From: Candidatus Aminicenantes bacterium
Lineage (GTDB): Bacteria; Acidobacteriota; Aminicenantia; Aminicenantales; JAFGBC01
Length of the DNA stretch: 64,000 nucleotides
Direction: 5' to 3'
Assembly (NCBI GenBank): GCA_963702005.1
Contig: OY969696.1
Span: 704,001-768,000, forward strand
The notes under the pieces: model-generated
Seen by the model: only the letters and a program-made list of their open reading frames with translations
What the model was told of the DNA's origin: nothing
Database searches by the model: none
In this document: piece by piece, positions 7,074-62,842 of the stretch
Layout of the letters: each line of letters begins with the position of its first letter
Position numbering within the stretch: the first letter of the stretch is position 1
Translations under genes and position numbers: made by a program

Positions 7074-7088
7074 CCGAGAAACGACAAA

Positions 7089-8207: not shown

Positions 8208-8210
8208 CCG

Positions 8211-9694: not shown

Positions 9695-9696
9695 AA

Positions 9697-9733: not shown

Positions 9734-9754
9734 CTTAAGGAAGAAAAGGCGGTT

Positions 9755-10693
9755 TTATTTCGTCAGATTCTTTGTGATTTCTTCAACAGCCTGACGGAGA
9801 ACGTTGTTCTCACGAATGAGTGTTTTCATTCGGATTGAAATTTTCGCGATGCCGGATTGGCTGAGGTTGAAATAGTCGGCCACGTCCTTGAGTGAATACC
9901 CCGCTTTCTTGCCTGCAATCCATATGACCGCATCTCTATTGAATTTGTTGTTCCGTCCCAAGACTCGATCCGATTCCGATTGAATCCGGTTCAGCGGGGG
10001 CTTTTCTATCAAACTCCGCAAAGCCGGAAGCTCCCGGTCTTTATGACGATCTGGATTTATCCGGCTCGTGATTTTCTCGACAAACTCAGGGCACCCCAGG
10101 ATGGCCGTGCGTATGAAGTCCTGGCGGAGAGATTCGGGATTTCGGCCGGCTTGGCTCAGGACGAAAGAAGCGTAGAGGCGTCTGGCTTGGGTTCTGTCTT
10201 GGCTGAATAGCCCGAGAACGAACTCGATTTTCAGCCAGGGAGGTGGTTTTCGAAGTCCGACATAGTCTCTATAGCTCGACCAGCAATATTGATCCGGCAG
10301 CTCCGCTATATCGGCGCGGACGGGATTTAAATGAATATAACTGGTAAGCAGTTGGGCGTAGGATTCCGCTTCGATCAAGATGCTTTTAAAACGGCCCTGG
10401 AAGAGGTGACCCACTCGTTTCTGCCTCTTGTTGAGATAAATGGAATAAGCGGAATTGATAAACTGCATGATTTGCGAGAGGTTGCCTCTGGGCGTCTCGA
10501 TCATGAAATGAAAATGATTCTCCATGAGGCAATAGGCGTGGAACTGTGCGGCATGCGTCTCGTAAGCCTCTTCAAGGAAATCCAGGAAGCGCAAATAATT
10601 CAAATTGTTGAAAAAGATCGGTTGTTTCTGATTCCCCCTGGAGGTTACATGATAAAAAGCGCCTTCGTATTCAATCCTGAACTGTCGTGCCAC
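9755..10693 (-). mobile_element. REP-associated tyrosine (Y1/HUH) transposase, RAYT-like, with C-terminal HTH
   Basis: FYHVTSRGN, YCLMENHFH (HUH), GHLFQGRFKS, YIHLNPVRA, WSSY; lower GC; flanked by inverted REP-like repeats. Confidence 0.9.
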
Positions 10694-10749
10694 ATGAATA
10701 GAGACTTGAGTCCCCGTCGATCTTTCTCACGATCGGATCTACGCTTGAA

Positions 10750-10786
10750 TTACACTTTATGACAAAGTGTAGGTTTGACCCCGGTC
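10750..10786. repeat. REP-like repeat copy 2
   Basis: ttacactttatgacaaagtgtaggtttgaccccggtc. Confidence 0.85.
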
Positions 10787-10828
10787 GACGTCTTTAGACA
10801 AAATCCCGGCTTTTTAAGGTCTTTATTT

Positions 10829-11374
10829 ATGAAGAGAGCGCGTTCCGCTCGGTGTATCATAAAGACGGCTTTGAGGCCGGACGTAAAAGTGGATTTAGGA
10901 AGGATCTACGACCGGTTCGGGGAGAGGATGTTCCATTATCTGTCTGTCAAGCTCGGCTCGGCCCAGGACGCCGAGGACGTCCTCCAAGAGGTCTTTTATC
11001 GCTTGCTGAAGAATCCCTTAAGGCTCCGGCTCGTGCGCGATCAGGCCGCCTACATCTTCCGGACGGCCCGCAACGAGGCCCTTAGGTTCTTGGGCGGGAA
11101 AATCCGCGATCGGAAGATCTCCAGCCGGGCGCTCGAGCTCCAGGGCGTCATTAGGGAGTCCCTGACCGGGGTCGGCCGGGACGAGGAAGACAGCGCGGCC
11201 CGCGCTTTAGCGGGAATCCCCGAGGAACAGCGTGAGGTCATCATCCTCAAGATTTTCGAGGAGTTGACCTTCAAAGAGATCGCTTCCGTTTGCGGCATTT
11301 CCATCAATACGGCGGCCAGCCGTTACCGGTACGGATTGGAGAAGCTCCGCGAGATCCTGGAGGAGAGACGATGA
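10829..11374 (+). CDS. ECF-family RNA polymerase sigma factor (start uncertain, 10829 or 10889)
   Basis: DAEDVLQEVF, YIFRTARN region 2; IPEEQREVIILK..LTFKEIA..ISINTAASRYRYG region 4. Confidence 0.9.
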   Translation: MKRARSARCIIKTALRPDVKVDLGRIYDRFGERMFHYLSVKLGSAQDAEDVLQEVFYRLLKNPLRLRLVRDQAAYIFRTARNEALRFLGGKIRDRKISSRALELQGVIRESLTGVGRDEEDSAARALAGIPEEQREVIILKIFEELTFKEIASVCGISINTAASRYRYGLEKLREILEERR

Positions 11375-11793
11375 ACGATGTTCGTAAGACCGAGGAATTT
11401 CTGGAAAGGTTCCAGCGGAAGCCCGCGCCTCCCGGCCTGCGGGCGAAGCTCCTGGAGAGGGCCGGGCAGAGGAGGAGGGATTCAAGGCTGCTTGGTCCGG
11501 CGGGCTGGGGAGTGCTCGGCGCGAGCCTCGTCCTGTTAACGCTGGCCTGGGCTTGCGACGGCTTACTATCTAAGCCCCTGGATCGACGGGTGTCGTCTGC
11601 TCTGGGCCGGTCCGGTTCCGAGCGGAATCCGGAAGAACAAGCCTGGAGTGAGCTAGAGAATGAGGTCCGTTTATCGAACGCCGACCTTAAAATGTCTCCT
11701 TGGCTGGTCCGTCCGCCTGACGGCGAGAACAGCGTCGATCGGGAAACGATTCTTCTGCTCAAAACGATGAAGGAGGATTTTGATGAGCTCTAA
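11371..11793 (+). CDS. Putative single-TM anti-sigma factor
   Basis: ATGA overlap with the sigma gene; PAPPGLRAKLL motif then one hydrophobic helix. Confidence 0.6.
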   Translation: MNDVRKTEEFLERFQRKPAPPGLRAKLLERAGQRRRDSRLLGPAGWGVLGASLVLLTLAWACDGLLSKPLDRRVSSALGRSGSERNPEEQAWSELENEVRLSNADLKMSPWLVRPPDGENSVDRETILLLKTMKEDFDEL

Positions 11794-13093
11794 AACAGTG
11801 AGAATTCTGGCTCGGATCGGGGTTGGGGCGCTGGCCCTTCTCGCCGTCGGCCTCGCCCTTCGCGCCGTCCTTAATTATTCCTACGGAAAGAAGCTGGAGT
11901 CTTTGCTTGCGGAGATGAAAGCGTCCGGGGCGCCCATGACGCCTAAGGACGTAGAGCCGACCTGCCCGGCCGGGGATAACGGCGCCCCTCTCTGGAATGC
12001 GGCCTCGGCCCTGCTGAATCTGGAGAACGAGGATAGAAGCCTCCTGGCCAACGGCTTCCTGGCTCTGAGATCTCGAAACGTGCCGGGTAACGATCTCAGG
12101 AGTTCCCTGGAATCGATCATCGCCAAGAATCAAAAAGCCATTCAGATGCTGTTGGAGGCGTCCCGGAAGCCTTGCTTCAAAGACGAGGAAAAATGGCTGG
12201 ATCCCAACAGGGACGGCTTCGCCGCCCGCTTGGTCAAAATCATCGGCGCCTCGAGGCTTTTGGCGCTGGACTCCGTTCTTAAGGCGGAGCAAGGCCGTAG
12301 CGAGGAGGCCGTCGCCGAGTGCCTGGCCGGCTTTCGCCTGATGAGAAGCGGCTTGGAGGACGCCTTCATGATCAACGACCTCGTTTTGGTGGCCTGTGCC
12401 AAGCAGCTCGTTCTTGCCCTGCAGGTCATCGCTTCGGGTCGGGAGCTTCCCGCTCCCCTTCTGTCACAGATCATCGCCGAACTCGACGGCTCGGTATGGC
12501 ATGACGGCATGATCCGGGCTTTGCGTATCGAACGCTTATTAATCCAGGACCACGGTCTTCGGGCGATTCGGGGGGAGGAGAAAAGCTCTTGGTCATGGCT
12601 TCTCCGGCCCATCATAAAATCCGAAATTATCTGGATGTCGTCTGTTTGGGACCGGATTATCCGGGACGCGCAGCGCCCTTATTATGAGAGCGATGGGCTG
12701 CGTCCTGCCATGGAGGATATCGAGAAGGACACTCCTTGGTATTTTCGGATGGCCGGGCTCCTCATCCCGAATGCGGCGTCCTTTGTTTTAAAAGAAGCAA
12801 CCCTCGAAGCCCTTCTGGATGTAACCCGCCTGGGGATCGCCTGCAAGATCTACAAGGCCAAACACGGCGTTTTCCCGGATTCGTTGACTCAGCTCGTCCC
12901 CGCCGTCCTGCCGGACCTCCCCGTAGATCCGTTCAGCGGGAAACCCTTCGTTTATAAAAAATCCGACTCCGGCTTCATCCTCTACAGCCTGGGGTCGAAT
13001 AAAAAGGATGACGGCGGACGGGAAACCTGGGACATCACCCAATTAGTTATGGACAAGGATGACGACTGGGCTTGGCGCGAAACGGCCCGCTGA
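11783..13093 (+). CDS. Membrane-anchored hypothetical protein with a C-terminal GspG/pseudopilin-like module
   Basis: N-terminal TM; C-terminal FPDSLTQL...LPVDPFSGKPFVY...ILYSLGSNKKDDGG. Confidence 0.65.
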   Translation: MSSKTVRILARIGVGALALLAVGLALRAVLNYSYGKKLESLLAEMKASGAPMTPKDVEPTCPAGDNGAPLWNAASALLNLENEDRSLLANGFLALRSRNVPGNDLRSSLESIIAKNQKAIQMLLEASRKPCFKDEEKWLDPNRDGFAARLVKIIGASRLLALDSVLKAEQGRSEEAVAECLAGFRLMRSGLEDAFMINDLVLVACAKQLVLALQVIASGRELPAPLLSQIIAELDGSVWHDGMIRALRIERLLIQDHGLRAIRGEEKSSWSWLLRPIIKSEIIWMSSVWDRIIRDAQRPYYESDGLRPAMEDIEKDTPWYFRMAGLLIPNAASFVLKEATLEALLDVTRLGIACKIYKAKHGVFPDSLTQLVPAVLPDLPVDPFSGKPFVYKKSDSGFILYSLGSNKKDDGGRETWDITQLVMDKDDDWAWRETAR

Positions 13094-46908: not shown

Positions 46909-46993
46909 AATTCGGGGGACACACGACTTAATTCCGGACTCCTTCTTTATCGACAATAGCAGCTTGAGAATTAAGTCGTGTGTCCCCCGAATT
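46909..46993. repeat. Perfect 26-bp inverted repeat (GGGGACA...TGTCCCC type) overlapping the comEC 3' end
   Basis: aattcgggggacacacgacttaattc (46909-46934) and its exact reverse complement (46968-46993), 33-bp spacer. Confidence 0.9.
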
Positions 46994-49363
46994 TTCATGG
47001 GTGCGGATGGAGACGGACCGGCCGTCAGCCGTGATCTCGACGGCGCCGTCAAGGTCGGTCCGGTACAAGCGCACGCTGGCGTTTCTATACCTGGCCAAGA
47101 CGTCCTCATTGGGCAGGCCGTAGCGGTTGCCGCTCCCTACCGACAGGACTGCGATTTGGGGCCGGACCGCCTCTAAAAAAAGCGGGGAGCTCGAGGACCG
47201 GCTTCCATGGTGGGGGATCTTTAGAACCAGGCTGGCCAGATCGGGAAAGGCCTTGACGATGCCTTCCTCGGCCGCCGTGCCGACGTCGGCTGCCAGCAGG
47301 CAGGAAAAACCGGTCATTTTAAGCCTTAGGACCATGGATAGGTCGTTGTCAGCCGGAGCCGTTTCAGGAAGCGGCTCCGCCGGATGAAGGACTTCGACCA
47401 GGACGGCCCCTTCTCGAAGAGTCTTCCCCCTCGACCAAACGGTCTGCACGGTTCCGGGCGAGAGAAGCCGTTTGAATTCCGCGTAGGAAGGATCGCCGGC
47501 CGACCGGACCGCTTCATGGAACTCCTTGACCTTGAAGTTGCGGACCACGGCTTTGAGTCCTTCCAGGTGATCGGGATGGGCGTGGGTCAGGACAACATGG
47601 TCGAGGGTCTTGATCCCCTTCCTCCACAGGAAGGGCGAGACGATCCGCTCTCCGATGTCGAATCCGTCCCCCGGGATGCCCCCTCCGTCCACGAGCATCT
47701 TCCTGCGGCCGGGGAATTCGACCAGGATGGAGTCGCCCTGGCCGACGTCGAGGAAGGTGATCCGCAGCCCGGGCGAGTAAGCCGGCGGGAACGGATAGGT
47801 GACGATGAGGATGAAAAAAACCGCGAACCCGGTTAAAATCGCGGCCTTGGCCCTCTTGCTTTTCAGGGGCGCCAGGAGGGCCAGAAGCAGGAGGTAATAG
47901 GCGATGATGAGAAGGGGATGGGGCGCGGGGATGCGGTAGGACATGAAATGGACCGGGTCGAGGAGGCCGGCGATCCAAACGAACCCTTTCAAGCCGAACC
48001 GGAGGGCGGCGGCCAGCCACCCGGCCAGCGCAGTTGAGACAAAGGCCGTCAGGAAAAAGACGTAACCGGCCGCCATCAGTGCGGCGACCAGGGGGATGGC
48101 CGGCAGGTTGAGGAGGAAAGATGAGAACGTGACTCGGTTGAACGATGCCGCGATGACGGGAAGGACTCCGAGCTGGGCCGCCGTCGTCAGGGCCGTCATT
48201 TCCCCGAGTTTGAATGGGAGACGAGGCATCCGCTTGAGGAGAGGCTTGTAGAATAAAAGAATGCCTAAGGTGGCGAGATAGGTCAGCTGAAACCCGGCGT
48301 CGAAGACCTGGAAGGGATTGAAGAGGAGGATGGCCAGGGCGCTGGCCGCGATCGTGTTGAGGAGGTGGACGTCCTTCCAGAGGAGCTTCCCGATGAAGAA
48401 GGCGGCGGCCATGACCGTGGCCCTGACGACCGATGCGTTTCCTTCGACGAGAAGGGCATAGCCGGCCAGAATCACGGTCAGGATTAGGTAGGAGGGGCGG
48501 GGAGAGACGCGAATGAGGCGGAGCAGGAAAAAGAGCAGGACCGCGATAATCCCGATATGGGCGCCCGAGATGGCCAGGAGATGGTAGAGCCCGGAGCGCT
48601 GGAGGACGAGGTTGACGGATTCGTCGAGACGTCCCCTCTCGCCGATGAGCAACGCCTCGAGAACGCCCCCTTCGGTCGAGAGGCCGGGCGGAGGGCCTTC
48701 GCCGAAATGCGCCTCGACCTTGCGTTGGAGGGCTTGCCGGGCCGATGAGATGGGCCCGAAGAAAAACGCCCAGGGTCCGGTCCCGATCTTCTTGACGAGA
48801 AGAGGGCTCTTGGAGAAGGCCGAGGCGTGGATCTTCCGGTTGCGCAGGATCCGGAGGTAGGGAGGAACCCTGAAGTTTCGGTCGGACGATGATACGCCGA
48901 GCTGGGCCGAAACCATGATGCGATCGCCGGTCCGGAGGGGAGGGAGCGGGTTCTCGGCCGAGAACGGAACGGTAACCCTCAAGGTTCCGCTGACGGCCGA
49001 CTTGTCCGTCCCGGCCACGACCTCATCGACCTTGAGGTATAGCGTATCTTTGTCCTTGCCCCTTCCCGGCGATTGGGTCAAGGTTCCGTAGAAATCCGCA
49101 AACGCCGCGAGACGCAGCCGGTGCAGGCCGTTTTCCTCGTAGTTGCGCTCCTGCCAGACGAAGAGCAGCCCGCCCAGGACGAGCGAAGCGGCCCAGATCA
49201 TCCCCAGGCAGGCCTTGTCCTTCTTTCGCCAAGAAAAAATCCAGGCCGCGGCCAGGGAAACGCCCAGGGCGCCGGCCCAAGCTTGGAGGGGAAGAGGAAC
49301 GGATGAGGCCGTCACGATTCCGAGAACGACGGCCGCCGCGACGAAGAGAAGGGGGAAAGCCAT
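46928..49363 (-). CDS. comEC: DNA internalization competence protein ComEC/Rec2
   Basis: HLLAISGAH, GFQL.YLAT, DVGQGD, THAHPDH, PHHGS, RTD..GA. Confidence 0.95.
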   Translation of the reverse strand: MAFPLLFVAAAVVLGIVTASSVPLPLQAWAGALGVSLAAAWIFSWRKKDKACLGMIWAASLVLGGLLFVWQERNYEENGLHRLRLAAFADFYGTLTQSPGRGKDKDTLYLKVDEVVAGTDKSAVSGTLRVTVPFSAENPLPPLRTGDRIMVSAQLGVSSSDRNFRVPPYLRILRNRKIHASAFSKSPLLVKKIGTGPWAFFFGPISSARQALQRKVEAHFGEGPPPGLSTEGGVLEALLIGERGRLDESVNLVLQRSGLYHLLAISGAHIGIIAVLLFFLLRLIRVSPRPSYLILTVILAGYALLVEGNASVVRATVMAAAFFIGKLLWKDVHLLNTIAASALAILLFNPFQVFDAGFQLTYLATLGILLFYKPLLKRMPRLPFKLGEMTALTTAAQLGVLPVIAASFNRVTFSSFLLNLPAIPLVAALMAAGYVFFLTAFVSTALAGWLAAALRFGLKGFVWIAGLLDPVHFMSYRIPAPHPLLIIAYYLLLLALLAPLKSKRAKAAILTGFAVFFILIVTYPFPPAYSPGLRITFLDVGQGDSILVEFPGRRKMLVDGGGIPGDGFDIGERIVSPFLWRKGIKTLDHVVLTHAHPDHLEGLKAVVRNFKVKEFHEAVRSAGDPSYAEFKRLLSPGTVQTVWSRGKTLREGAVLVEVLHPAEPLPETAPADNDLSMVLRLKMTGFSCLLAADVGTAAEEGIVKAFPDLASLVLKIPHHGSRSSSSPLFLEAVRPQIAVLSVGSGNRYGLPNEDVLARYRNASVRLYRTDLDGAVEITADGRSVSIRTHENSGDTRLNSQAAIVDKEGVRN

Positions 49364-49366
49364 GCG

Positions 49367-50698
49367 CTAAGAGCCGATTTTGGAAGGGGCGGGCTCGACC
49401 CTGCTTTGGAGCTCGAGGCCGTCGAGAACGAGATGGCAGAGGAGCTTGATGGCCAGGGGGAGACTACGTTCGTCGGGGTTGAACAAGGCGCTGTTGAGAG
49501 GGGCCGCGCTCGAGAGTCGCGGATTCCGGACGCCGAGGAGGAAGAAGAAGCCGGGAGCCTTCTGGGTGTAGAAGCCGAAATCGTCCGAGATCGTCTGGGG
49601 GATGAGCGGAAGGACGTTGTCCTGTCCTTGGAGATCGACCAGGGTCGGCAGGAGGCTTCGAACGAGGTCGGCCAGGTTGACGACGGGAGGGATCACCGGC
49701 TTGATATCGAAGGCATAATCCGCGCCGAAGGGAGTCACGACGCCCCTGACGATGCTTTCGATCAGGCGGGGCATCCGGCGCCGGTTGGCCTCGCTCAGGG
49801 TTCGGACCGTGCCCTCCAGCACCGCCTTGTCGGCGACCATCCCGGCGCTCGTCCCGCCTTCGATAAGGCCGACCGTCAGGACGATTGGGTCCTGAGGATC
49901 GGCCGTCCGGCTGGCGATGGACTGGAGGGCGACGACGATTTGGGCGGCCAGGACGATCGCGTCGATCCCTTCATAGGGGCGGGCGCCGTGGGCCGTCCGG
50001 CCCTTGACGGTGATTTGGAACCAGTCGGCGCCGGCCAGGACGGGGCCGCTCGAGACGAAGACTTGTCCGAGCTGCTCGGGCCAGACATGAAAGCCGACGA
50101 TGGCCCTGACGGTCGGGTTTTCGAGAACGCCCTCGGCGATCATGGCCGCCGCCCCCGATTCGCCCCCGTCCGTTCCTCCCTCAGAGGCCGGCTGGAAGAT
50201 GAACTTGACGTTTCCCGGAATGATATCCTTAAGGCCGGCCAGGACCATGGCCGTCCCCAGGACGGCCGAGATATGGATATCGTGGCCGCAGGCGTGCATG
50301 ATGCCGGGATTCAGGGATTTATAAGGAAGGTCATTGGCCTCCTGGATGGGGAGGGCGTCCAGGTCGGCCCGCAGGGCAAGCGTGCTCCCGTGGTCGCGGC
50401 CCCGGAGAAGGGCGACGACGCCGGTCTTGGCGACGCCGGTCTTGACTTCGAGGCCGAGCGAGACGAGCTTGGCCGCGACGAGCTTGGCCGTCTCGACTTC
50501 CTCCCCGGCCAGCTCGGGATTCATATGAATGAAGCGGCGGATCTTGATGATTTCGGCCCGGCCTCGCTCGACGGCCTCGTCGATCCGCTGGGCGGTCGGC
50601 TTGTCGACGGCCCGGGCCGGTCCGGCCGCGAGGGCGCACACGGCCAGGGCCGATAGCATGGACGGAAGAATCGCCGCCGCTTTCCCATTCCCTCTCAT
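49367..50698 (-). CDS. M20D family amidohydrolase with signal peptide and altered active site
   Basis: HMNPEL, LRADLDALP, MHACGHD, G..AHGA.P. Confidence 0.85.
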   Translation of the reverse strand: MRGNGKAAAILPSMLSALAVCALAAGPARAVDKPTAQRIDEAVERGRAEIIKIRRFIHMNPELAGEEVETAKLVAAKLVSLGLEVKTGVAKTGVVALLRGRDHGSTLALRADLDALPIQEANDLPYKSLNPGIMHACGHDIHISAVLGTAMVLAGLKDIIPGNVKFIFQPASEGGTDGGESGAAAMIAEGVLENPTVRAIVGFHVWPEQLGQVFVSSGPVLAGADWFQITVKGRTAHGARPYEGIDAIVLAAQIVVALQSIASRTADPQDPIVLTVGLIEGGTSAGMVADKAVLEGTVRTLSEANRRRMPRLIESIVRGVVTPFGADYAFDIKPVIPPVVNLADLVRSLLPTLVDLQGQDNVLPLIPQTISDDFGFYTQKAPGFFFLLGVRNPRLSSAAPLNSALFNPDERSLPLAIKLLCHLVLDGLELQSRVEPAPSKIGS

Positions 50699-52149: not shown

Positions 52150-54184
52150 TCAGAAGCTCCGCGCGCAGATCCCGCCGCCCGCGGTCCCGACGTAGATCTT
52201 GCGGGCGGCGCCGTCGACCTGGATCGAGTTCACGCTCTTGACCGGCAGGTCGCCGGAGAGGTCCGTCCAGGTCGCCCCCTTGTCGGCGCTGTGCCAGAGG
52301 CCGTTCCAGTTCCCGACAAAAAGCTCGTTCGGATTGAGCTTGTTGACGGCCAGGCAATCGCCGGAATAGGGCGCGTTGGCGAGCTTGGTCCAGGAGCCGC
52401 CGCCGTCCGTGGAGGCGAAAATGCCTTCCCACCCGGTCGCGGCATAGACCGTGGCGGGAGAGCCGCCGGACACGGCCAGGGCGTCGATCGGGCACCCGGT
52501 CGAGGGCGGGCTCAACGAGGTCCAGTTGGCCCCGCCGTCCGTGCTTTTATGCAGGACCGGCGAGCCGGAGGAGGTCGTGCCGGCGACATAGATCGTCCGG
52601 GTATTGGAGGGGTCGAACGCGGCGGCGCAAGCCTGGCTGTTTTCATCGGTCCGAATCCGGACCTGGGTCCAAGTCAGGCCGCCGTCGGTCGAGATGAAAA
52701 CGCCCATGTAATTTTTGCCGCCGACCACGATGTATCCCGCCGCCAGGACGCGGTTGGGAACGGCCGGGTCGACGACCAGGATCAGCCCCTGGCAGCCGGC
52801 GCCGGGAAGAAGCTGTTGAAAGTTGGCGCCTCCGTCTACAGACCTGTAGACGCGGGGGGTGCTTCAGCCGTAGGTCGAGAGATAAACCCGGTTCGGGTCC
52901 GCGCTGGGGACGGCCAGGTCGGCGATGTTGTCGCTCCCCAGGAAATCGGGGAGCTTCGTCCAGCTCGCGCAGGCGTTCGCGCTCTTGAAAACCCCGACCG
53001 ACGTCGCCGCCGCGTACGCCGTGGCCGGAGCGATCGCCGAGGACGAAGAGCCGGGCATCCGGAACCCCCCGATGTTCGTCGCCAGGATCCCCGCCTGGGA
53101 CGGCAGGAAGGTTTTCCCGGCGCTGGTGCTTTTAAAGACCCCCGCCGTCGCGGAGACGTGAACCGTGCTTCCCGAGATCAAGACCTTCGACGCGAGTCCG
53201 GCGAAGCCGGTCCCGCATTTGGTCCAATCCGTTCCGCCGTTCGTGCTCTTCCAGACTTCCTTGGACCCGCCGCCGTACACGATGCTGGGATGGACCTTGT
53301 TCGAAGGCCAGGGACTCCAGGTAAGCGATATAAGACGGGCTGTTCTGCTTCTTCCAAGTGGTCCCGGAGTTGGCCGATATCGCCACCCCCGCTACCGTGT
53401 TTTGGTAGGACACCAAGATCCGGGAGGGATTCGAGGGGTCGATGGCGACCGTGTAAGCATAGTTGACTATGGTGTGGAGATCGTTCATGAATGCGGGCGT
53501 GACGTTCTTCCAGGCCCCCCCGCCGTTCGTGGAGCGGAAGACGCGGGCGCGATAATTCGAGCCGTCGTAGAAGTACCCGCAGAAGAAAATGGTGGACGGA
53601 TTCTTGGGGGAGATGGCGATATCGCGGCCGTAGGCGTAGCTCGACGTCGCCTCCATCGTCTTATGGCTCCAGGTTTGGCCGCCGTTCGTCGTCATGAAGA
53701 CGGCGAGGCATGTCTTCCAACTGGACGTGTCATAGGTATAACTCCCCGCGACGAAAATGACCTTGGGATTTTGGGGGTTGATGGCGATCCTCCCGGAATA
53801 GCCCTGCCGGTATTGGCCGAACGGAAGCTTCGTGAAGGTCGACCCTTGATCGACCGATTTATAAAGTCCGTCCGAGGCCAGGATATAGATCGTCCGCGGA
53901 TTTTTAGGGTCCAGGACGAAATCGTAAGCGTAATCGCCGAGGATGGACTTGAGGGTCCAGCTCTTGCCGTTGTTGACGGACCGGTACACCAGCCCGCGCT
54001 CGGACACCGCATAAAGCTCGGAGGGCGATTTGAGGTTGCGGGCGATGCCCATGATGTTGCCGCCGGTGGGGCCGAGCTGGGTCCAGACCGCCGCTTGATC
54101 CACAGGGCGGGCGGCGCGCATGCCGGGGCCGCCGATGAGAAGGGCGCCAAGGATTGCCCAGATATAAACGGCCGGTCTTTTCAT
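52150..54184 (-). CDS. Secreted BNR beta-propeller candidate selenoprotein, paralog D (TGA 52864-52866; +1 frameshift at 53300-53301)
   Basis: Reads through TGA in frame as STYG-U-STPRVYRSVDGGANFQQLLPGAGCQG into ORF 52150-52728; deleting one base gives SLAFDKVHPSIVYGG, matching paralog A. Confidence 0.75.
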
Positions 54185-54225
54185 TCTCCCTCCTCCGGAA
54201 AAATCCGCATTTTCCCTTCTCGGCC

Positions 54226-54254
54226 ATTATAGCGGGGGGTGTCCCGGCGGTCAA
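54226..54254 (-). promoter_or_regulatory. Sigma70 promoter of paralog D
   Basis: TTGACC-17 nt-TATAAT. Confidence 0.75.
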
Positions 54255-54323
54255 CAGAGGTTGAGGCTCGGCGTCCGAGCCGCTGGGAGGCGACTGGTCG
54301 TCACCCCGGCGCCGGCCCGCTCC

Positions 54324-56345
54324 CTAAAACGTCCGCTTCCAGATGCCTCCACCTTGGGTCCCGACGTAGAGGGTGTGGTTCGTCGCGTTGAAAACGAGCT
54401 GATTTACGTACGGAACGGGCAGTCCCTGGCTGACGTCGGTCCAGGTCAGGCCCCGGTTCTGGCTGTAAAAAACGTTCTGGTTGTTTCCGACGAACACTTG
54501 GTTGGGATTGTTCTTGTTGACGGCCACGGCCCGGAAACCGTAGCTGTATGTTGTGAAGGTGCACTTGGTCCAGGAGGTCCCGCCGTTCGCACTCCGCCAG
54601 AGCTCACTGTTGGTCCCGACATAGACGATATTCGAGTCCTGGGGATCGACGGCGATCGCCTGGGGCGGGTATTGAATCCCGTTCGTGATCGCGGTCCAGT
54701 TGACCCCCCCATCCGCGCTCCTATACACGAGAGCGCTAGAGTTGGAGGTATATCCGCCGACGTAGAGGATGTTCGCGTCGCCCGGCGCGACCGCCACCAC
54801 GGTCGATTGGCTGCCCTCTTGGGTGCTGATCCGGATGGGCGTCCAGTTCGTCCCCCCGTCCTTGGAGACGACGATTCCCATCGACGTGACGCTCCCTTGT
54901 TTGACTGATCCGGTAATGATAAGTTGGCTGAAGTTCTGGGGATTCGCGTAGAGGCTTCCGTATCGGCACTCGTAGAGATCGTAAATCTGTTGGAACGTCC
55001 GTCCTCCGTCTACAGACCTGTAGACGAATTCGCCCTGCGGTCAGCCGCTGGGCTTGACATAGATGGTATTGGGATTCGTGGGGTGAACGACGATGCTGGC
55101 GACGAGCGTGCTGCCCACGAATGTTCCGCAGGTCGTCCAGGCCGATCCCCCATTGGCCGTCTTAAAGAGGGCATATCCCGTGATCCCGGCGTAGATGGTG
55201 CTCGGCGAAGAAGGCGAGACGCCTAAAGCCGCGATGTTCGAGCCGCGGATGCCGGCGTGGCTGGGATTCCAGGTGGAGCCGCCGTTCTTGCTCAGGAAAA
55301 TCCCAACCTGGCTTGCCAGGTGGACATTGGACCCGGCGGCCAGGATTATGCGGCTCTCTCCATGGATGCCGTCGCTGTAAGCTTTCCAGGTGATCCCGCC
55401 GTCCGTGCTCTTGAGGACGCTGTAGACGTAATCGAGCTCGCCTCCGGCATAAAGGATCTTGGAGTTGGCGGAATCGGCCGTGATGGAGTACACATACGTG
55501 ATCCCTGGAGTCTGTTGGGCCTTCCAGCTTCCGCCGGCGTTCGTCGTCCGGGCGATGCCGTTGTTGTGGGCCACCCAGGCTTTTTTCGGGTCGTGGGCGT
55601 CTACATAGATGGCGTTACAGGCGGGATAGGTTCCGTCGAAAATCGCGGCGCCGCCGACGCTCGTCCAGGTGCTTCCTCCGTTCTTCGAAACGTAGGCGCG
55701 GCCGGTATCGACGCTGTTCTTATAGTCGTAGCCGCATAGATAAATGTAATTGGGGTTGGCCTTGGCAAAAACGACGTCATATCCATAGCCGGAATCGGCC
55801 GAGTTCGGGAACCTCTTGACGGTCCAAGACGCGCCGCCGTTCGTCGTTTTAGCGACGGCGATATCGCTTTTGTAGTTCACGTTGTCATACCGGTATGACC
55901 CGGCGATCATAATGATCTGGGGATTGGCCGGGTGGACGGCGATCCGGCCGTACCAGCCGGTAAATCCGGCCGGGAATGCGCGAACCGTGAAATTTTTGCC
56001 CTTGTCCGTGCTCTTGTGAAGATAGCCGTAGCTGAGGACGTAGATCGTGCTCGGGGTCTTGGGATCGACAGCGAGGTCGTAGATCGCCTGGGAGACGATG
56101 GATTGGCGCGTCCAGCTCGCGCCGCTGTTCGTGGATCTCCAAACCTGACTCGGCCAGCTCGAGCTCGCGGCATAGAGCTCGGCCGCCGACTTGGGATTCC
56201 GGGCCAGGCCGCGGATATCCCCTCCGTAGGGGCCGACCGGGGTCCAGGAACCGGCCCGGTCGGGCCGCTCGATCGGGGCGGAGCCGCGCCCGAAGAGGAA
56301 GACGGCGCACAGGACCGCCAGGATGATGACGACGGCTTTTTTCAT
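54324..56345 (-). CDS. Secreted BNR beta-propeller candidate selenoprotein, paralog C (673 aa, Sec435, TGA 55041-55043)
   Basis: KPSG-U-PQGEFVYRSVDGGRTFQQIYDLYECRYG is open and in frame with ORF 54324-54881; SECIS-like hairpin. Confidence 0.82.
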
Positions 56346-56387
56346 AGGCCCTCCTCCGGGGTTCGAGCTCGTTGCATCCGTGACCGG

Positions 56388-56417
56388 ATTATAGGCAATT
56401 TCCCGCCCGGCGGTCAA
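56388..56417 (-). promoter_or_regulatory. Sigma70 promoter of paralog C
   Basis: TTGACC-18 nt-TATAAT. Confidence 0.75.
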
Positions 56418-56441
56418 TACAAAGGGTTGAAGGGGGGCTGC

Positions 56442-58463
56442 TTAAAACGTCCGCTTCCAGATGCCTCCACCTTGGGTCCCGACGTAGAGGGTGTGGTTCG
56501 TCGCGTTGAAAACGAGCTGGGCTACGTACGGAACGGGCAATCCCTGGCTGACGTCGGTCCAGGTCAGGCCTCGGTTCTGGCTGTAGAAAACGCCCTGGCT
56601 GGACCCGACAAACACCTCGTTGGGGTTGTTGTTGTTGACGGCCACAGCATCGAAATTGTAGGCGTTGGTCGGGAACGTGCATTTCGTCCATGAGGCCCCG
56701 CCGTTCGAACTCCGCCAAACTTCCCAAAAGGTCCCAACATAGACGATGTTCGGATCCTGGGGATCGATGGCGATAGATTGGGGCACGTATTGGATTCCGT
56801 TCGTGACGGAGGTCCAGTCAACCCCTCCGTTCACGCTCTTATAGACAAGCCCGGTATAGGTAGCGCTCTGGCCGCCGACATAGAGGAGGTTAGCGTTGCT
56901 GGGCGCGACCGCCGCGACGTTCGATTGGCTGCCGTCCTGGCTGCAGATTTTGACCGGCGTCCAACTCGACCCCCCGTTCGTCGAGAACACGATTCCCATC
57001 GAGGTTACGCCCCCCTGCTTGACCGAGCCCGTGATCAGGAGGAAGTTGATGTTCTGGGGGTTCGCGTAAAGGTTTCCGTACCGGCATTCGTAGAGATCGT
57101 AAATCTGCTCGAATTTCCGTCCTCCGTCTACAGACCTGTAGACGAATTCGCCCTGGGGTCAGCCGCTGGGCTTGACGTAGATGGTGTTCGGGTTCGAGGG
57201 ATGGACGACCACGCTGGCGACGAGATCGCTGCCGTAGAATTCGGTACAGGGCGTCCAGGCGGAACCCCCGTTGACCGTCTTGAGCAGAGCGTAGCCTTGG
57301 ATTCCGGTGTAAATCGTGTTCGGCGAGGAAGGGGCGATGGCGAAGGCTTTGATATTTGCCGCCCGGATTCCGTTGTGGCCGGGGTTCCAGGTCGTGCCGC
57401 CGTTCTTGCTCAAGAAGATTCCCGCTTGCGTCGCCTGGTGGACCTTGGAGCCGGCGGCCAATATTTGGCGACATTCTCCGTAGAGGCCGGTGCTCGAAGC
57501 CTTCCAGGCATTACCCCCGTCGGTGCTCTTGAGGCTGCTGTAGACCAAATTGTACTTGCCGCCCGCGTAGAGGATATTCGGGTTGGAGGAATCGGCCGCG
57601 ATGGCCGTAACATGCGTGATCTGGGGCGTCTGCTGGGCCTTCCAGCTCCCGCCGGCGTTCGTGGTCCGGGCGATGCCGCTGTCATGGCCCACCCAGGCTT
57701 TTTTCGGGTCGCGGGGATCGACGTGAATGGAGTAGCAGGCAGGGTAGCTGTTGTTGAAGACGGCCGACGAGCCGACGCTCGCCCAGGTGCTCCCGCCGTT
57801 CTTGGAAACGAAGACCCGCGCGGCTGTGACGCTGTTTTTCTGATCATACCCACAGAGATAAATGTAATTGGGGTTGCTTTTGGCGAATACGATGCCGCGG
57901 CCATAACCATAGTCGGTCAGATTGGAAAGTCTTTTGAGCGTCCAGGTCGCGCCGCCGTTCGTCGTCTTGGCGACGGCGATTTCGGAATGCCAATCGGCGG
58001 TGTTGTAATAATAAGACCCGACGACCATGATAATCTTGGGATTAGCCGGGTGGACGGCGATCCGGCCGTTGTAGGACTGGAAATCGTCCGGGAACCGATG
58101 GTTCGAGAAGGTCTTGCCTTTATCCGTGCTCGTGTAGAGATAACTTTCGCTGAGGAGGTAAATCGTGCTCGGGGTCTTGGGGTCGATGGCGAGGTCGTAA
58201 ATCCATTGCATGACGATCGATTGGCGCGTCCAGCTGGCGCCGCTGTTCGTGGATCTCCAAATCTGGCTCGGAGAACTCGAGCTCACGGCGTAGAGTTCGG
58301 CCGCCGACTTGGGATTCCGGGCCAGGCCTTGGATATCCCCTCCGTAGGGGCCGAGCGGGGTCCAGGAACCAGCCCGGTCGGGCCTGTCCGCCGGGCCGGG
58401 GCTGCGCCCGAATAGAAAGACGGCGCACAGGACCGCCAGGATGATGACGACGGCTTTTTTCAT
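56442..58463 (-). CDS. Secreted BNR beta-propeller candidate selenoprotein, paralog B (673 aa, Sec435, TGA 57159-57161)
   Basis: KPSG-U-PQGEFVYRSVDGGRKFEQIYDLYECRYG in frame with ORF 56442-56999; 13 Asp-box repeats; SECIS-like hairpin. Confidence 0.82.
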
Positions 58464-58505
58464 GGGCCCTCCTCCGGGGTTCGAGCTCGTTGCATCCGCG
58501 ACGGG

Positions 58506-58535
58506 ATTATAGGCAATTTCCCGGCCGGCGGTCAA
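58506..58535 (-). promoter_or_regulatory. Sigma70 promoter of paralog B
   Basis: TTGACC-18 nt-TATAAT. Confidence 0.75.
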
Positions 58536-58642
58536 GAAACCGCGGTAAAAAGGCCATCCTCAGAACTTCCTCCACCAGATCCCCGCCCCCTCGGTCGCGG
58601 CAAAAACTCTCCGGCCGGCCGCGGAATCGGCGTCAGCGCCGA

Positions 58643-60679
58643 TTAAAAATCCCTCCGCAGAATGCCGCCCCCCGATGTTCCGACGTAGACCTGGCGGGCG
58701 GCGCCGTCGATCTCTATCGATGTCACGCCCCTGACGGGAAGACCCTCCGAAATGTCCGTCCAGGTTGCTCCTTTGTCGTTGCTGTAGGAAAAGAAGCTCC
58801 AGTTCCCCGCGAATATTTCGTTTGGGTTGGACTCATTGATGGCGATGCAATTGCATCCCCAGGGGCCGTTCTCGAGCTTGGTCCAGGTGTCCCCGCCGTT
58901 CGTGGAGACGAAAATACCCGCCCAGGAGGTTCCCAGATAGATCGTGCCCGAGACGCTCGGATCTACGGCGATGGCCTCGATCCTGGCTGAGGACGAGGGA
59001 GGAGTCAGCTCGGTCCAGCTCGCGCCCCCGTCCGTGCTCTTGTGCAGGGCCGGGGCATAGGAGGATTTATAGCCGGCGACATAGATCGTATTCCTGTTCG
59101 AAGGGTCGAACGCCGCGACTTCCAGGCAGCTGCCCGTATCGTTCCTGATCTTGATTTGTTTCCAATCGGATCCGCCGTCCGTCGACAGGAAAATCCCCAT
59201 TACATATTGACTGCCGCTGACGACATATCCTCCCGCTATGATGTGCTTCGGATCCGCGGGATCGGTCAGGAGGATGAGTCCTTGGCAGCCGGCTCCGGGC
59301 AGAAGTTGCTTAAAGCTTTTGCCTCCGTCTACGGAACTGTAGACGCGGGGGTTGCTTCAGCCGTAGGTCGAGAGGTAGACCCTGTTCGGGTCCGCGTTCG
59401 GAACGGCGAGATGAGCGATGCTGTCGCTTCCCGCGAAATTGCCGAGCTTCGCCCAGCTCCTGAAGCCGTTCTCGGTTCTAAAGATGCCGTAATTGGTGAC
59501 CGCGGCATAGGCTGTGTTTGCGGAGGCGGCGCTCGCCGATGAGCGGGGATATTGGAAATCCGCTATTTCGGCGGCTTGAATTCCCGCGTGGGAGGCTTTA
59601 AAAGAGCGGCCCGCGTTCGTGCTCTTGAAGACGCCCGCCGTGGACGTGACCTGAAGCGTATTCCCCGAGGCAATGATCCTCGATACGGTGCCGCAGAGGA
59701 CGTTCGAGAATGGCGTCCAATGATGTCCGCCGTCCTTGCTTTGATAGATCGTTTTATAGGCTCCTCCGTAGAGGACATTGGGATTGGTTTTGTCGAGGGA
59801 AAGGGACTGGATATTATAAAGGCTCTGAGGATTCGTCTGGTTCTGCCAACTGACCCCGGCGTCGGCCGTAAAGGCCACTCCGCCATAATACGGGACGAAC
59901 AATCTCGCGGCGTTCGAGGGGTCGACGGCGACGGCGTAGGCCTGGCCGTAAAATCCCGAGCCCGCGTTCATGAAGGCGGGAGTGATGTCCTTCCAGGTCC
60001 CGCCCGTATTCGTGGAGCGGTAGATGCGGGCGATGCAGCCCGTGCCGGCCCAATAATAGCCGCAGAAATAGACCGTGGACGGAGCCTGGGCGGGAATGAC
60101 GATGTCGCGCGCGCAGCCCGAATCCGAAGTCGTGTCCATCGTCTTCTGGGTCCAGCTTTTGCCTCCGTTCGTCGATTTGAAGACGGCCAGGCACGATTTG
60201 TTGGCGCTTGAATTGGTGGTATAGCTTCCCGAAACGAAGACGATATTCGGATTTTGGGGGTGGACCGCGATTCGGCCCAGAAAGGCGTATCGATGGCCGC
60301 CGAGCGGGAATTTCGTGAATGTTGTTCCTCTATCGGCGGACTTATAGAACGCTTCCGAGGATAGGACATAGACTGTCCGCGGATTCTTCGGGTCCAGCGC
60401 TATATCGGAAGCATCGATGTCGAGGTGGGACTGGCGTGTCCAACTCCCGCAGCCGTCGGCTGACCGGAAGACTTGCCCCTGCTTGGTTAGGACGTATAGT
60501 TCGCTCGGAGATTTCGGGTGGCGCGCGATGGAGATGATATTTCCGCCGTTCGGCCCGAGTCCGGTCCAGACCGAAGCGGCCTCCGGAGACGACGATGGAG
60601 AGGGCTCCGGTCCGCGAAGGCGGCCGTAGAGCACGGCGGCGCAGAAGACGGCTAAGATGACCCCCATGGCTTTTTTCAT
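58643..60679 (-). CDS. Secreted BNR beta-propeller candidate selenoprotein, paralog A (678 aa, Sec441, TGA 59357-59359)
   Basis: STYG-U-SNPRVYSSVDGGKSFKQLLPGAGCQG in frame with ORF 58643-59200; hairpin CGTCTAC-AGTTCC-GTAGACG. Confidence 0.8.
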
Positions 60680-60720: not shown

Positions 60721-60750
60721 ATTATAGGGAATTCTCCGCCCGGCGGTCAA
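60721..60750 (-). promoter_or_regulatory. Sigma70 promoter of paralog A
   Basis: TTGACC-18 nt-TATAAT. Confidence 0.75.
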
Positions 60751-61432: not shown

Positions 61433-62842
61433 ATGAAAGAATCTCTTTTTCGGCTGATCCCATCTGTGGACGCCCTCCTCAATCATCCGGAGGCGCGCCG
61501 GCTCGCCGAGGCGTACGGGCGGCCCTTGGCCTTGGACGCCGTCCGCGACGAGCTCGAGGCGGTCCGGGCCGAAATCCAAACGGCCGGCGCCGCATCATCC
61601 TTGGCCGAGAAAGACCTTGCCCCGGAGGCCTTGCTCGACCGAGTCCGGGCGCGGCTCGAGCGGAAGCTCGCCCCCTCGCTGGGACGCACGATCAACGCGA
61701 CCGGGATCGTCATCCATACCGGGCTGGGGCGGGCCGTCCTGGCTCCCGAGGCGCGGGAGGCCCTGGCGCGCGTGTCCCAAGGATACTCGCAGCTCGCCGT
61801 GGATCTTGAGACAGGTCAGCGCGGCCATCGCGACGTCCATTACGCCTCCCTTCTCCGCGAGCTGACCGGCGCCGAGGCCGGTTTCGCCGTCAACAACAAC
61901 GCCGCGGCGACCGTCCTCCTTCTCAACACCCTGGCCAAAGGCAAGGAGGTCATCCTCTCGCGCGGCCAGCTTGTCGAGATCGGGGGTTCGTTCCGGATGC
62001 CCGACGTCATGGAGACGTCGGGGGCCGTCCTGCGCGAGGTCGGGACGACCAACAAGACCCATCTCCGCGACTACGAGGCGGCGATCTCGGACCGGACCGG
62101 CATCCTCCTTCGCGTCCACCACTCGAACTACCGGATCATGGGCTTCGCCGAGGAGCCGGGGATCGAGGAGCTGGTCGAGCTCGGCCGCAAGCACGGCCTC
62201 CCCGTCGTCGACGATATCGGAAGCGGGGCGCTGGTTGACCTCAAAGATTACGACCTCGAGACCGAGCCACTCGTCCAGCGGAGCGTCCGGGCCGGCGCCG
62301 ACGCCGTCTGCTTCTCGGGCGACAAGCTCATCGGCGGGCCCCAGTCGGGGATCATCGTCGGCAGGGCCAAGGTCGTCGGGCGCGTCAAGAAAAACCCGCT
62401 GGCCCGCGCTTTCCGGATCGGGAAGCTGACCGCGGCCGCCCTCGAAGCGACCCTCAAGCTCTTCCTGGACCCGGACCGGCTGAGGGACCGGCATCCCGTC
62501 TACCGGATGCTGGGGCTGGACGCGAAGGAGATCGAACGGCGGGCGCGCGCCGCGTCGGATACGCTGGCGCTCGGCCTGGCCGGGCGGGCCCGCGTTTCGG
62601 TCGTAGAGGACCGGTCCCAGGTCGGAAGCGGCTCGGTCCCGGTTGAGACCCTCCCGACCTTCGTCCTCAAAATCGAATCCGCGTCTCTTCCGGCCGAGGA
62701 GCTGGCCCGCCGGCTGCGGCGCGGCGCCCCGCCCGTCTTCGGCCGCGTCCACAAGGACGCGCTCCTTCTCGACTTTCGGACCGTCTTCCCCGAAGAGGAC
62801 GGCATCGTCATCGACGCCGTCCGGGCGGCCGTCGAACCTTAA
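61433..62842 (+). CDS. selA: L-seryl-tRNA(Sec) selenium transferase
   Basis: INATG.VIHT.LGRA, VNNNAAA, SRGQLVEIGGSFRMP, EVGTTNKT, DIGSG, FSGDKLIGGPQ. Confidence 0.97.
   Translation: MKESLFRLIPSVDALLNHPEARRLAEAYGRPLALDAVRDELEAVRAEIQTAGAASSLAEKDLAPEALLDRVRARLERKLAPSLGRTINATGIVIHTGLGRAVLAPEAREALARVSQGYSQLAVDLETGQRGHRDVHYASLLRELTGAEAGFAVNNNAAATVLLLNTLAKGKEVILSRGQLVEIGGSFRMPDVMETSGAVLREVGTTNKTHLRDYEAAISDRTGILLRVHHSNYRIMGFAEEPGIEELVELGRKHGLPVVDDIGSGALVDLKDYDLETEPLVQRSVRAGADAVCFSGDKLIGGPQSGIIVGRAKVVGRVKKNPLARAFRIGKLTAAALEATLKLFLDPDRLRDRHPVYRMLGLDAKEIERRARAASDTLALGLAGRARVSVVEDRSQVGSGSVPVETLPTFVLKIESASLPAEELARRLRRGAPPVFGRVHKDALLLDFRTVFPEEDGIVIDAVRAAVEP

Follow-up and report, generated by a model that had tools for sequence, protein, structure and literature searches.

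Tandem double beta-propeller genes with an in-frame UGA in a Candidatus Aminicenantes bacterium point to an apparently undescribed selenoprotein family

A Candidatus Aminicenantes bacterium has four neighbouring minus-strand genes whose predicted products are secreted double beta-propeller proteins; each gene contains an in-frame UGA codon that is very probably decoded as selenocysteine (Sec). The array occupies positions 52150-60679 of the window, as we call the whole 64,000-nucleotide stretch that was analysed (assembly GCA_963702005.1, contig OY969696.1, positions 704,001 to 768,000). The first-pass annotation of this DNA had taken the genes for selenoprotein genes, and the hairpin, the Sec machinery, the covariation, the selection, the stop codon use and the UCA tRNA all agree with this reading. 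Selenium incorporation is a prediction from sequence. At that level it is well supported: all the testable hallmarks of bacterial Sec decoding were found, and they outweigh the scarcity of homologs with Cys at the Sec site. Apparently, the genes belong to a large selenoprotein family of sediment bacteria that has been undescribed so far.

Genes A (58643..60679), B (56442..58463) and C (54324..56345) are single open frames of 678, 673 and 673 codons, with one in-frame TGA apiece and the stop codons TAA, TAA and TAG. They were identified by translation and, for gene A, also by Pfam matches (Sortilin-Vps10/BNR) and an AF2 model. The TGA is codon 441 in A (59357..59359) and codon 435 in B (57159..57161) and C (55041..55043); in gene D (52150..54184, stop TGA) it lies at 52864..52866. 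In all four genes it follows Gly, exactly where the first-pass annotation had placed it. The open gap from the TGA to the next listed ORF, given there as 156 (A), 159 (B), 159 (C) and 135 nt (D), matches the ORF table, and the intact Asp-box of the linker is encoded just past each TGA as VY(R/S)SVDGG. The full length of 673-678 residues holds for A, B and C; it fails for D, a family member with a one-base frameshift at 53300 in this assembly, whose N-terminal 350 codons (53132-54184) lie in another frame than the TGA-bearing part. Contigs of related strains in three of four runs (X2, X3, X4) are one base shorter exactly there, and the frame is restored. Therefore, the shift is either an indel of the assembly or a lesion specific to this strain. 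Two other family copies are frameshifted in this assembly as well. The read-through products of A, B and C begin with a K-rich and a hydrophobic segment; to this extent the proposed signal peptide stands, and the products of the family are probably exported. With a strict regular expression, Asp-box-like motifs numbered 11 in A, 13 in B and 15 in C, close to the predicted 13 or so. Genes B and C are 74% identical, A is 39-40% identical to B and C, and A shares 57% with the C-terminal part of D, as expected for divergent A/D and B/C subtypes. A promoter-like TTGACC-N18-TATAAT lies on the minus strand ahead of gene A (60721..60750, 11 of 12 matches). The same motif search found it ahead of B (58506..58535) and C (56388..56417) and, with an N17 spacer, ahead of D (54226..54254).

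Each TGA is followed by a minus-strand SECIS-like hairpin, which starts 11 nt later in A (59326..59345) and D (52833..52852) and 14 nt later in B (57125..57144) and C (55007..55026). The stem has 8 bp, or 7 bp in A. Hairpin B reads CGUCUACA-GGUC-UGUAGACG. The apex is CAGGUCUG in B, C and D and CAGUUCCG in A, where the loop is AGUUCC and the hairpin encodes VYSSVD. The hairpin is at the same time the code of the Asp-box, VYRSVDGG. Its core is found at four places in the window, with zero occurrences expected from 100 shuffles. A related-strain contig (run X1) has no listed differences over 54996-55058, the hairpin region of gene C, and has differences on both flanks. Using the bSECIS criteria of PMC13188914, section 5, we found that all 22 hairpins examined fit the model: loops of 4-6 nt with G at position 1 or 2, stems of 7-8 bp, a spacing of 18-22 nt after UGA and a minimum free energy of -7.9 to -9.6 kcal/mol. 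Thus, the SECIS postulated immediately 3' of the UGA has a matching hairpin behind each of the four codons. The stem covaries: 98.9% of 176 stem cells are paired, G-C is replaced by A-U in four sequences and A-U by U-A in two, the latter change turning the encoded peptide into VFRSED. The observed covariation score was reached by none of 500 shuffles. Compared with shuffles, the whole 60-nt folds of B, C and D showed no clear gain in stability (z = -0.44, -0.87, -1.49); the stability signal sits in the local hairpin, not in the whole 60-nt fold.

The hairpin goes together with the TGA. All 14 hairpin motif matches in the genome have TGA upstream, and so do 52 of 53 hits of the exact hairpin 20-mer in JGI metagenome contigs. 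The peptide [VI]YRSVDG was present in 77 of the 80 genome-contig loci examined. The five of these loci with an upstream U have hairpin-forming codons (GTCTACAGGTCTGTAGAC in four, a compensated ATC...GAT in L053), and among the loci without U, by our reading, the hairpin was formed only in L124. The four paralogs described earlier are present in the array, but they are just four of the 14 family genes in this genome. The break is always TGA, in frame and at one site, in these 14 genes, in 8 genes of related genomes and in 52 cases in metagenome contigs; the claim that it is never TAA or TAG, made for the array, extends throughout the 22 genomic copies.

The Sec machinery adjoins the array, and six family genes flank the sel operon. 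The selA gene (L-seryl-tRNA(Sec) selenium transferase, 61433..62842, plus strand; Pfam SelA 476 bits, TIGR00474 562 bits) is divergent from gene A. Next to it, as had been noticed before, lies selD (selenide, water dikinase, plus strand; TIGR00476 364 bits), which starts at 62858 and runs beyond the window end at 64000. Outside the window, within 2.1 kb, are selB (G000:768099-769995; TIGR00475) and tRNA-Sec (G000:770011-770106; Rfam 73.8 bits, ARAGORN anticodon tca), both of which the first-pass annotation had proposed to confirm elsewhere in the genome. It had also proposed to compare the codon at the site between genomes with and without selAB. The presence of selA is not discriminating: selA is present in five of five genomes with Sec forms (the window's genome and four others) and also in four of five genomes holding non-Sec forms only.

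We compared selection on the two sides of the UGA in five gene pairs with 223-238 aligned downstream codons per pair. The dN/dS ratio was 0.22-0.41 downstream versus 0.21-0.38 upstream. Judging by these ratios, purifying selection is equal on both sides and the part past the UGA is translated. In the first 13 codons past U, dS was 0.12-0.24 versus 0.19-0.86 elsewhere (five gene pairs).

These data also bear on the other ways in which the UGA could be explained. Gene callers list the family genes as two ORFs, as the first-pass annotation had foreseen, and a 440-aa piece of a family product is stored as a database protein (P0005); together with the frameshifts in gene D and two other copies, this could mean that each locus holds two separately translated genes with true stops, or a decaying pseudogene. 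Such an explanation is very unlikely, given that no start codon occurs until 135-159 nt past the TGA, with conserved coding sequence between, that the in-frame TGA keeps its site in all 14 + 8 + 52 cases, that dN/dS is 0.2-0.4 on either side, and that the contigs of related strains lack the frameshift of D. The UGA could also be read as a standard amino acid, through a reassigned code (Trp or Gly) or a suppressor tRNA, and relatives do have Gly and Ser there, in a GG-x-G context. However, TGA is the true stop of 6 of the 14 family genes, tRNA-Trp has the anticodon CCA, and the sole UCA-anticodon tRNA among the genome's 53 tRNA/tmRNA genes is tRNA-Sec. The G+C content of about 60% also speaks against this account, which leaves the strict coupling of hairpin and TGA unexplained and has hardly any probability. 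In bacteria, Sec insertion has to compete with RF2 and is frequently inefficient. It is therefore conceivable, if improbable, that the UGA mostly terminates, the fragment of 434-440 residues being the main product and the read-through a selenium-dependent switch or by-product, or that the hairpin is a pause or attenuator; the Ser and Gly of relatives indicate that the fold tolerates non-Sec residues at the site. On the other hand, the 223-238 aligned downstream codons per pair are selected as strictly as the upstream part, the apex that binds SelB in fdhF recurs in the hairpin, and the sel operon adjoins. Termination would also break the second propeller, as had been pointed out, leaving it with about two of seven blades by the model.

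For Sec decoding we propose the following course, taken from established bacterial Sec biology. When the ribosome stands at the in-frame UGA, SelB with Sec-tRNA(Sec) would bind the hairpin starting 11-14 nt downstream, whose GGUC apical loop starts 19-22 nt past the UGA. SelB would then deliver selenocysteine, which would yield a protein of 673-678 residues and not the fragment of 434-440 residues. The same 20 nt also encode a strand and the Asp-box VYRSVDGG, so the RNA signal would fix not only the peptide but also the codons used for it. E. coli fdhF (formate dehydrogenase H) likewise has an intragenic hairpin directly 3' of the UGA, with the identical apex CAGGUCUG (fdhF SECIS from NC_000913). 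Counted from the U of UGA, the GGUC loop occupies nt 22-25 in fdhF and 23-26 or 26-29 in the propeller genes. In contrast to fdhF, the propeller protein is unrelated, the lower stem is different, no equivalent of the bulged U was seen, and the hairpin doubles as Asp-box code.

The product would consist of an N-terminal signal or anchor segment, implying export, and two tandem 7-bladed propellers. The AF2 model is unbroken across the Sec site (pLDDT 88.4, pTM 0.88), and its top Foldseek matches are all GH74, with E about 1e-27 and TMq 0.62-0.67 for most entries listed. By this model the fold is two tandem 7-bladed Asp-box propellers, nearest to GH74, which bears out the two propellers of the first-pass annotation. 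GH74 xyloglucanases and OXG-RCBH (1sqj, 2cn3, 5fkr) have the same tandem architecture at about 700 residues and are also the best PDB sequence matches. The identity is only 16-20%. GH74 enzymes have a catalytic Asp pair in the cleft between the propellers; in the profile alignment to 2cn2, the repeats shifted the register. To our knowledge, no GH74 enzyme contains Sec. The Pfam profile PF15902 (Sortilin/Vps10) scores 129-134 bits against a cut-off of 33. Sortilin is a single 10-bladed propeller, and this fold was rejected: the model matches sortilin with a TMq of 0.22 versus 0.62-0.67 for most GH74 entries. The PF15902 match reflects shared Asp-box repeats, the signature that the family has in common with Sortilin/Vps10 and Ycf48/BNR proteins.

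According to the model, Sec probably lies on the variable "top" face, in a loop that connects strand 2 to strand 3 in approximately the second blade of the C-terminal propeller. In Asp-box propellers the top face serves ligand binding and catalysis (topology and use of this face in PMC2716378). A Cys is located at -24 (13) or +24 (3) in 16 of 17 aligned Sec forms, the sole form without a nearby Cys being G000:1221052-1223016; Cys at -24 was found in none of 11 aligned non-Sec forms. In all 46 distinct metagenome contexts there is a Cys within -28..-21, +21..+32 or -6..-1. Between two paralogs near tRNA-Sec lie three of the genome's five WxxWCxxC thioredoxin motifs and a Fer4_5 polyferredoxin. 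It is from covariation and gene neighbourhood that we infer a pairing of Sec with Cys and a link to the TlpA-like genes. Most likely, though we hold this tentatively, Sec and the neighbouring Cys form a selenylsulfide/selenol-thiol redox pair or a pair binding soft metal or chalcogen, which may be serviced by the TlpA-like thioredoxins and the polyferredoxin of the same cluster. It is also quite possible that Sec is decoded for another role than a cycling redox centre: a reduction-resistant selenylsulfide staple under anoxic conditions, or a single soft-metal/chalcogen ligand. Selenylsulfides have a lower potential, the partner Cys shifts among three loop positions and is always close, the proteins are apparently exported, and relatives function with Ser. 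Against this, the clustering with TlpA-like reductants and the polyferredoxin hints at electron delivery; nothing else separates the options. Export, Sec close to Cys and clustered selenoprotein genes are shared with the SAO system and the UGSC-containing and TlpA-type selenoproteins, as described in bioRxiv 10.1101/2022.07.06.499078 and PMC13188914 (sections 7 and 9). As presented there, those systems use thioredoxin-like, substrate-binding-protein or small-protein folds with CU or UxxC motifs, whereas the propeller family has a large propeller scaffold, a partner Cys about 24 residues off and 14 paralogs in one family.

Relatives go by the name Candidatus Aminicenantes, apart from a single Zixibacteria genome. 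Among metagenome contigs from wetlands and sediments, the family is common. Cys (TGC) at the Sec site was found in only one of the 11 non-Sec relatives that were aligned; the others have Ser, Gly, Pro or another residue, mostly Ser or Gly. The first-pass annotation had expected Cys there and had counted a lack of Cys-aligned homologs against its own reading, a situation that is nearly what we found. Among full-length database proteins the closest is P0004 (54% identical), with Ser at the site. Since Cys-aligned homologs are scarce and this protein has Ser, Sec may be catalytically non-essential. Against NCBIfam NF045728 (F510_1955 family glycosylhydrolase), a 246-position model with a curated cut-off of 175 bits for the whole protein, eight members score 160-228 bits, made up of 4-6 partial matches to the repeats; five exceed the cut-off and three fall short. 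A propeller family with Sec was absent from NCBIfam and from the 2026 catalogue of 119 selenoprotein families, its supplements aside, in line with the earlier remark that no such family had been characterised. The family probably arose inside a non-Sec propeller family, and it has expanded to 14 copies in this genome.

With this finding, the known selenoproteins would gain a large and apparently exported family whose fold is not that of thioredoxin. Gene callers cut all these genes in two. Standard discovery methods require Cys/Sec pairs (PMC13188914, section 6), and Sec aligns here mainly with Ser or Gly. Thus, such methods would tend to miss the family, and similar families may exist. The hairpin would be a clean natural case of dual coding, in which a SECIS sets the amino acids and rare codons of a structural protein motif and compensatory changes even alter the peptide, from VYRSVD to VFRSED. 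The fdhF-like apex suggests that the element is directly testable in E. coli. A further possibility, which we consider doubtful, is that the proteins are a selenium-based extracytoplasmic module for redox reactions or capture, with a carbohydrate-enzyme-type propeller as the scaffold and a ligand-face Sec-Cys pair that is recharged by TlpA-like thioredoxins and a membrane polyferredoxin whose genes lie beside the sel operon. If this were true, the family, having no Cys homologs, would have gone unnoticed in selenoprotein discovery, which depends on searches for Cys/Sec pairs. The substrate would be extracellular, for example polysulfide, elemental sulfur, selenium, a soft metal or disulfide-rich organic matter, and the 14 paralogs would be the main reason why these sediment bacteria keep the Sec trait.

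Four neighbouring propeller genes, A to D, follow one another in tandem at 52150-60679 of the window, all on its minus strand. When the in-frame TGA is read through as Sec, gene A (58643-60679) encodes 678 residues, and genes B (56442-58463) and C (54324-56345) encode 673 residues each. These products are uninterrupted, with exactly one in-frame TGA each (59357, 57159 and 55041) and Gly before it, where the first-pass annotation had placed the breaks. Its gaps between the TGA and the next listed ORF (156, 159, 159 and 135 nt) were returned by the ORF finder. Full-length open frames had been described for all four genes. This holds for A, B and C but not for D (52150-54184, homologous TGA at 52864), which is split by a frameshift: in this assembly, its initial 350 codons are in a different frame from the rest. 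Homology with A places the shift at 53300, and short-read contigs of related strains have one base fewer exactly there in at least three of four sequencing runs (X2, X3 and X4). With that base removed, D reads like A (...SLAFDKVHPSIVYGG vs. ...SLSLDKTNPNVLYGG). D is therefore intact in relatives, and what the window shows is an indel in the consensus or else a lesion of recent origin. Since the related strains lack this base, the assembly may carry scattered indel errors. Family copies split by frame changes like D were also seen at 3454978-3456934 and 1976626-1978576 of the single-contig assembly (G000:C1, the window's own genome).

B and C are 74% identical, and A is 57% identical to the C-terminal part of D. 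A shares only 39-40% with B and C, which agrees with the divergent subtypes noted earlier. In all four genes, the N-terminus is hydrophobic and K-rich, and a strict regular expression finds 11-15 Asp-box-like motifs per protein. Each gene is preceded on the minus strand by a near-consensus promoter-like site, TTGACC-N17/18-TATAAT, with 11 of 12 consensus matches (60721-60750, 58506-58535, 56388-56417 and 54226-54254). This site is kept even across the subtypes that are only 39% identical. The TTG start assigned to B and C by the ORF finder is its -35 hexamer. Downstream of the array, also on the minus strand, are an M20 peptidase (49367-50698) and a competence protein of the ComEC/Rec2 type that carries a metallo-beta-lactamase domain (46928-49363).

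After each TGA the sequence can form a hairpin, CGUCUACA-GGUC-UGUAGACG; A differs in having a 7-bp stem and the loop AGUUCC. The hairpin starts 11 nt after the UGA in A and D and 14 nt after it in B and C. The window contains four copies of the hairpin core, and 100 shuffles gave none. The apex of the E. coli K-12 fdhF SECIS (NC_000913) has the same CAGGUCUG; counting from the U of UGA, GGUC occupies nt 22-25 there and nt 23-26 or 26-29 in the family. We collected 22 hairpins: 14 from this genome, five from a same-genus genome and three from other genomes. All 22 agree with the bSECIS model as section 5 of a 2026 review gives it (PMC13188914), with a spacing of 18-22 nt and an MFE of -7.9 to -9.6 kcal/mol. 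In their alignment 98.9% of the stem cells are paired. Four sequences carry a double change from G-C to A-U, which replaces Val by Ile in one arm and is silent (GAC to GAU) in the other. Two carry A-U to U-A, which changes Tyr to Phe and Val to Glu, so that the peptide becomes VFRSED. None of 500 shuffles matched the covariation score, and sliding the partner columns by 1-3 positions lowered the pairing to 15-55%. The signal is confined to the local hairpin: whole 60-nt folds of B, C and D were not convincingly more stable than shuffles. The only Rfam matches in the window at gathering thresholds were two tRNAs; none was to a SECIS family.

The nucleotides of the hairpin also encode an Asp-box, and we compared loci with and without the UGA. 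A degenerate hairpin pattern has 14 matches in the window's genome, all with an in-frame TGA 4-6 codons upstream. The exact 20-mer has 53 matches in JGI metagenome contigs, and 52 of them have an in-frame TGA with the frame open on both sides. The peptide [VI]YRSVDG is encoded at 77 of 80 examined GTDB-species loci, with an upstream U at five of the 80 (from four records of 'Candidatus Aminicenantes' and one of 'Candidatus Zixiibacteriota'). These five carry hairpin-forming codons, which read GTC TAC AGG TCT GTA GAC at four loci and take the compensated form ATC...GAT at L053. In the list of 80 loci, those without U encode the same peptide with different codons, and apparently L124 alone forms the hairpin. 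The hairpin is also absent from the non-Sec paralogs of the window's genome. Thus, in the sequences compared, the hairpin goes with the UGA and not with the encoded peptide. Only two VYRSVDG-coding hairpin stretches without an upstream TGA were found: L124, a Gemmatimonadaceae record with the loop CGGUCU, and L179, a metagenome contig with the exact 20-mer. Both are probably due to chance. A SECIS that doubles as Asp-box code is a notable and unusual trait of the family.

The machinery for Sec is complete and lies next to the array. The selA gene (61433-62842) is adjacent to gene A and divergent from it, and selD (62858 onwards) adjoins selA, as the first-pass annotation had said. It had named selB and tRNA-Sec as genes to be confirmed elsewhere in the genome, and it turned out that both lie just past selD, at G000:768099-769995 and G000:770011-770106. 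Presence of selA does not by itself discriminate: all five genomes with Sec forms have it, and so do four of five genomes with non-Sec forms only.

A UGA in the middle of a gene may also be a true stop that leaves a split gene, the mark of a pseudogene, a codon of a reassigned code or a regulatory signal that mainly terminates. TGA is the terminator in six of 14 family genes, including D, and two of the 14 Sec genes (D and 3455342-3456934) are frameshifted in the assembly. Among the 53 tRNA and tmRNA genes that ARAGORN found in the whole genome, the UCA anticodon occurs only in tRNA-Sec, and tRNA-Trp has CCA. Because six family genes end in TGA and the sole UCA tRNA is tRNA-Sec, TGA is an ordinary stop here unless the hairpin follows. 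Across five gene pairs, paralogous or orthologous, dN/dS is equal on the two sides of the UGA, at 0.22-0.41 downstream and 0.21-0.38 upstream. Within the 13 codons that follow U, dS drops to 0.12-0.24, against 0.19-0.86 elsewhere, as expected under a constraint on the RNA. For A, an AlphaFold2 model made from a 28-sequence alignment is confident and unbroken across the site (pLDDT 88.4, pTM 0.88). Taken together, the alternatives appear improbable. The observation made at first pass is real, and the hairpin, the sel machinery and the equal dN/dS on both sides of the UGA support its interpretation of these genes as probable selenoproteins. SelB would insert Sec at the UGA, and the N-terminal signal would direct export.

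Pfam matches of the proteins are Sortilin-Vps10, BNR and PSII_BNR, and NCBIfam gives generic Asp-box models only. A sortilin-type fold was a poor match (TMq 0.22). The solved structures that match best, in sequence as well as in fold, are GH74 xyloglucanases, in which two 7-bladed propellers stand in tandem (16-20% identity; E about 1e-27; TMq 0.62-0.67 in most of the listed entries). The two 7-bladed propellers expected earlier are recovered in the model of A. We therefore describe the fold as GH74-like, a likeness shown at the level of sequence and fold match, and do not call the proteins GH74 enzymes. The model puts Sec441 of A in the loop that joins strand 2 to the strand 3 leading into the Asp-box, with strand 434-438 before it and strand 446-449 after it. 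[quoted passage not shown] Sec would accordingly be on the functional face of the C-terminal propeller, in about its second blade.

Of the 17 Sec forms in the 28-sequence alignment, 13 carry a Cys some 24 residues upstream, within the loop that leads into the same blade; this Cys is missing from all 11 non-Sec forms. A, B and C have a Cys about 24 residues downstream instead, in the loop leaving the blade, and one Sec form has neither. All 46 distinct metagenome contexts have a Cys at -28..-21, +21..+32 or -6..-1, although such counts overstate independence because the sequences are related. Still, the partner Cys changes position between subfamilies and is always in a loop that would be expected to lie next to Sec. 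A divergent subtype in two JGI metagenome contigs (L138 and L173) has Cys just four residues before Sec (CPVGU and CGSGU), not about 24 away. A gene cluster just beyond the window lies between two Sec paralogs downstream of tRNA-Sec (G000:C1:774900-780300; 6900-12300 of locus L132). It encodes three signal-peptide TlpA/ResA-like thioredoxins with WC(V/G)PC, one fused to DUF6029 and one to CarboxypepD_reg, and holds three of the genome's five WxxWCxxC motifs. It also encodes a membrane protein of the Fer4_5 polyferredoxin type and an outer-membrane barrel resembling OmpW. From the covariation and the gene neighbourhood, we tentatively suggest that Sec and Cys could pair on the top face for redox chemistry or binding, and that the neighbouring thioredoxins might recharge this pair.

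The window's genome has 14 genes with UGA and hairpin and about seven paralogs without UGA. The sel operon has six Sec copies around it, with A-D to one side and 772368-774833 and 780279-782771 to the other. The latter two continue at the C-terminus for about 150 further residues that have no counterpart in other copies. The same-genus genome gave five matches, all with TGA, and a genome from another family of the same order gave one. A phylum-wide search found the close family in at least three of 401 genomes, an undercount, as two candidates were scored per genome. A maximum-likelihood tree of 28 sequences places non-Sec members inside Sec clades with strong support, with Ser in two cases and Cys in one; its deeper branches are non-Sec, and it forces at least four changes. 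Most simply, Sec may have been gained once and then lost several times, on a tree whose root is unproven. Non-Sec relatives mostly have Ser or Gly at the Sec site, not Cys.

A heuristic genome scan for other UGA-plus-hairpin sites, which falls short of a selenoproteome census, missed three of 14 family genes. Two more genes outside the window, G000:C1:1013349-1015058 (+) and 2162569-2164131 (-), have an in-frame TGA and, after it, a hairpin whose loop is GGUC/GGGUC. They encode a signal peptide, a thioredoxin-like N-terminus with G-U-G-S-C and a long helical-repeat tail. We regard them as candidate selenoproteins; they resemble the 'UGSC-containing protein' family of PMC13188914 Table 1, a likeness only.

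That table, which the authors of the review regard as the most comprehensive inventory, lists 119 families and subfamilies, and none of its entries is for BNR, Asp-box, Vps10, GH74 or propeller proteins. Release 20.0 of NCBIfam contains no model specific to the family. In the literature listings searched, and within PMC13188914, PMC12013277, PMC13326102 and bioRxiv 10.1101/2022.07.06.499078, selenocysteine was not co-mentioned with BNR, sortilin, VPS10, propeller, GH74 or Asp-box. These results agree with the earlier view that the family is uncharacterised. Discovery methods, as described in PMC13188914, rely on Cys/Sec pairs, and such pairs are largely absent here.

New selenoprotein families are found regularly. 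The UGA, the SECIS-type hairpin, the complete Sec machinery, the constraint past the UGA and the GH74-like fold are all shown at the sequence level. This is probably a new such family with the standard decoding mechanism; its selenium incorporation and function are as yet predictions. Its unusual traits are the large, apparently exported propeller scaffold, homologs with Ser or Gly rather than Cys, and 14 paralogs. The family and its dual-coding SECIS would be of note to specialists, and the predictions are directly testable.
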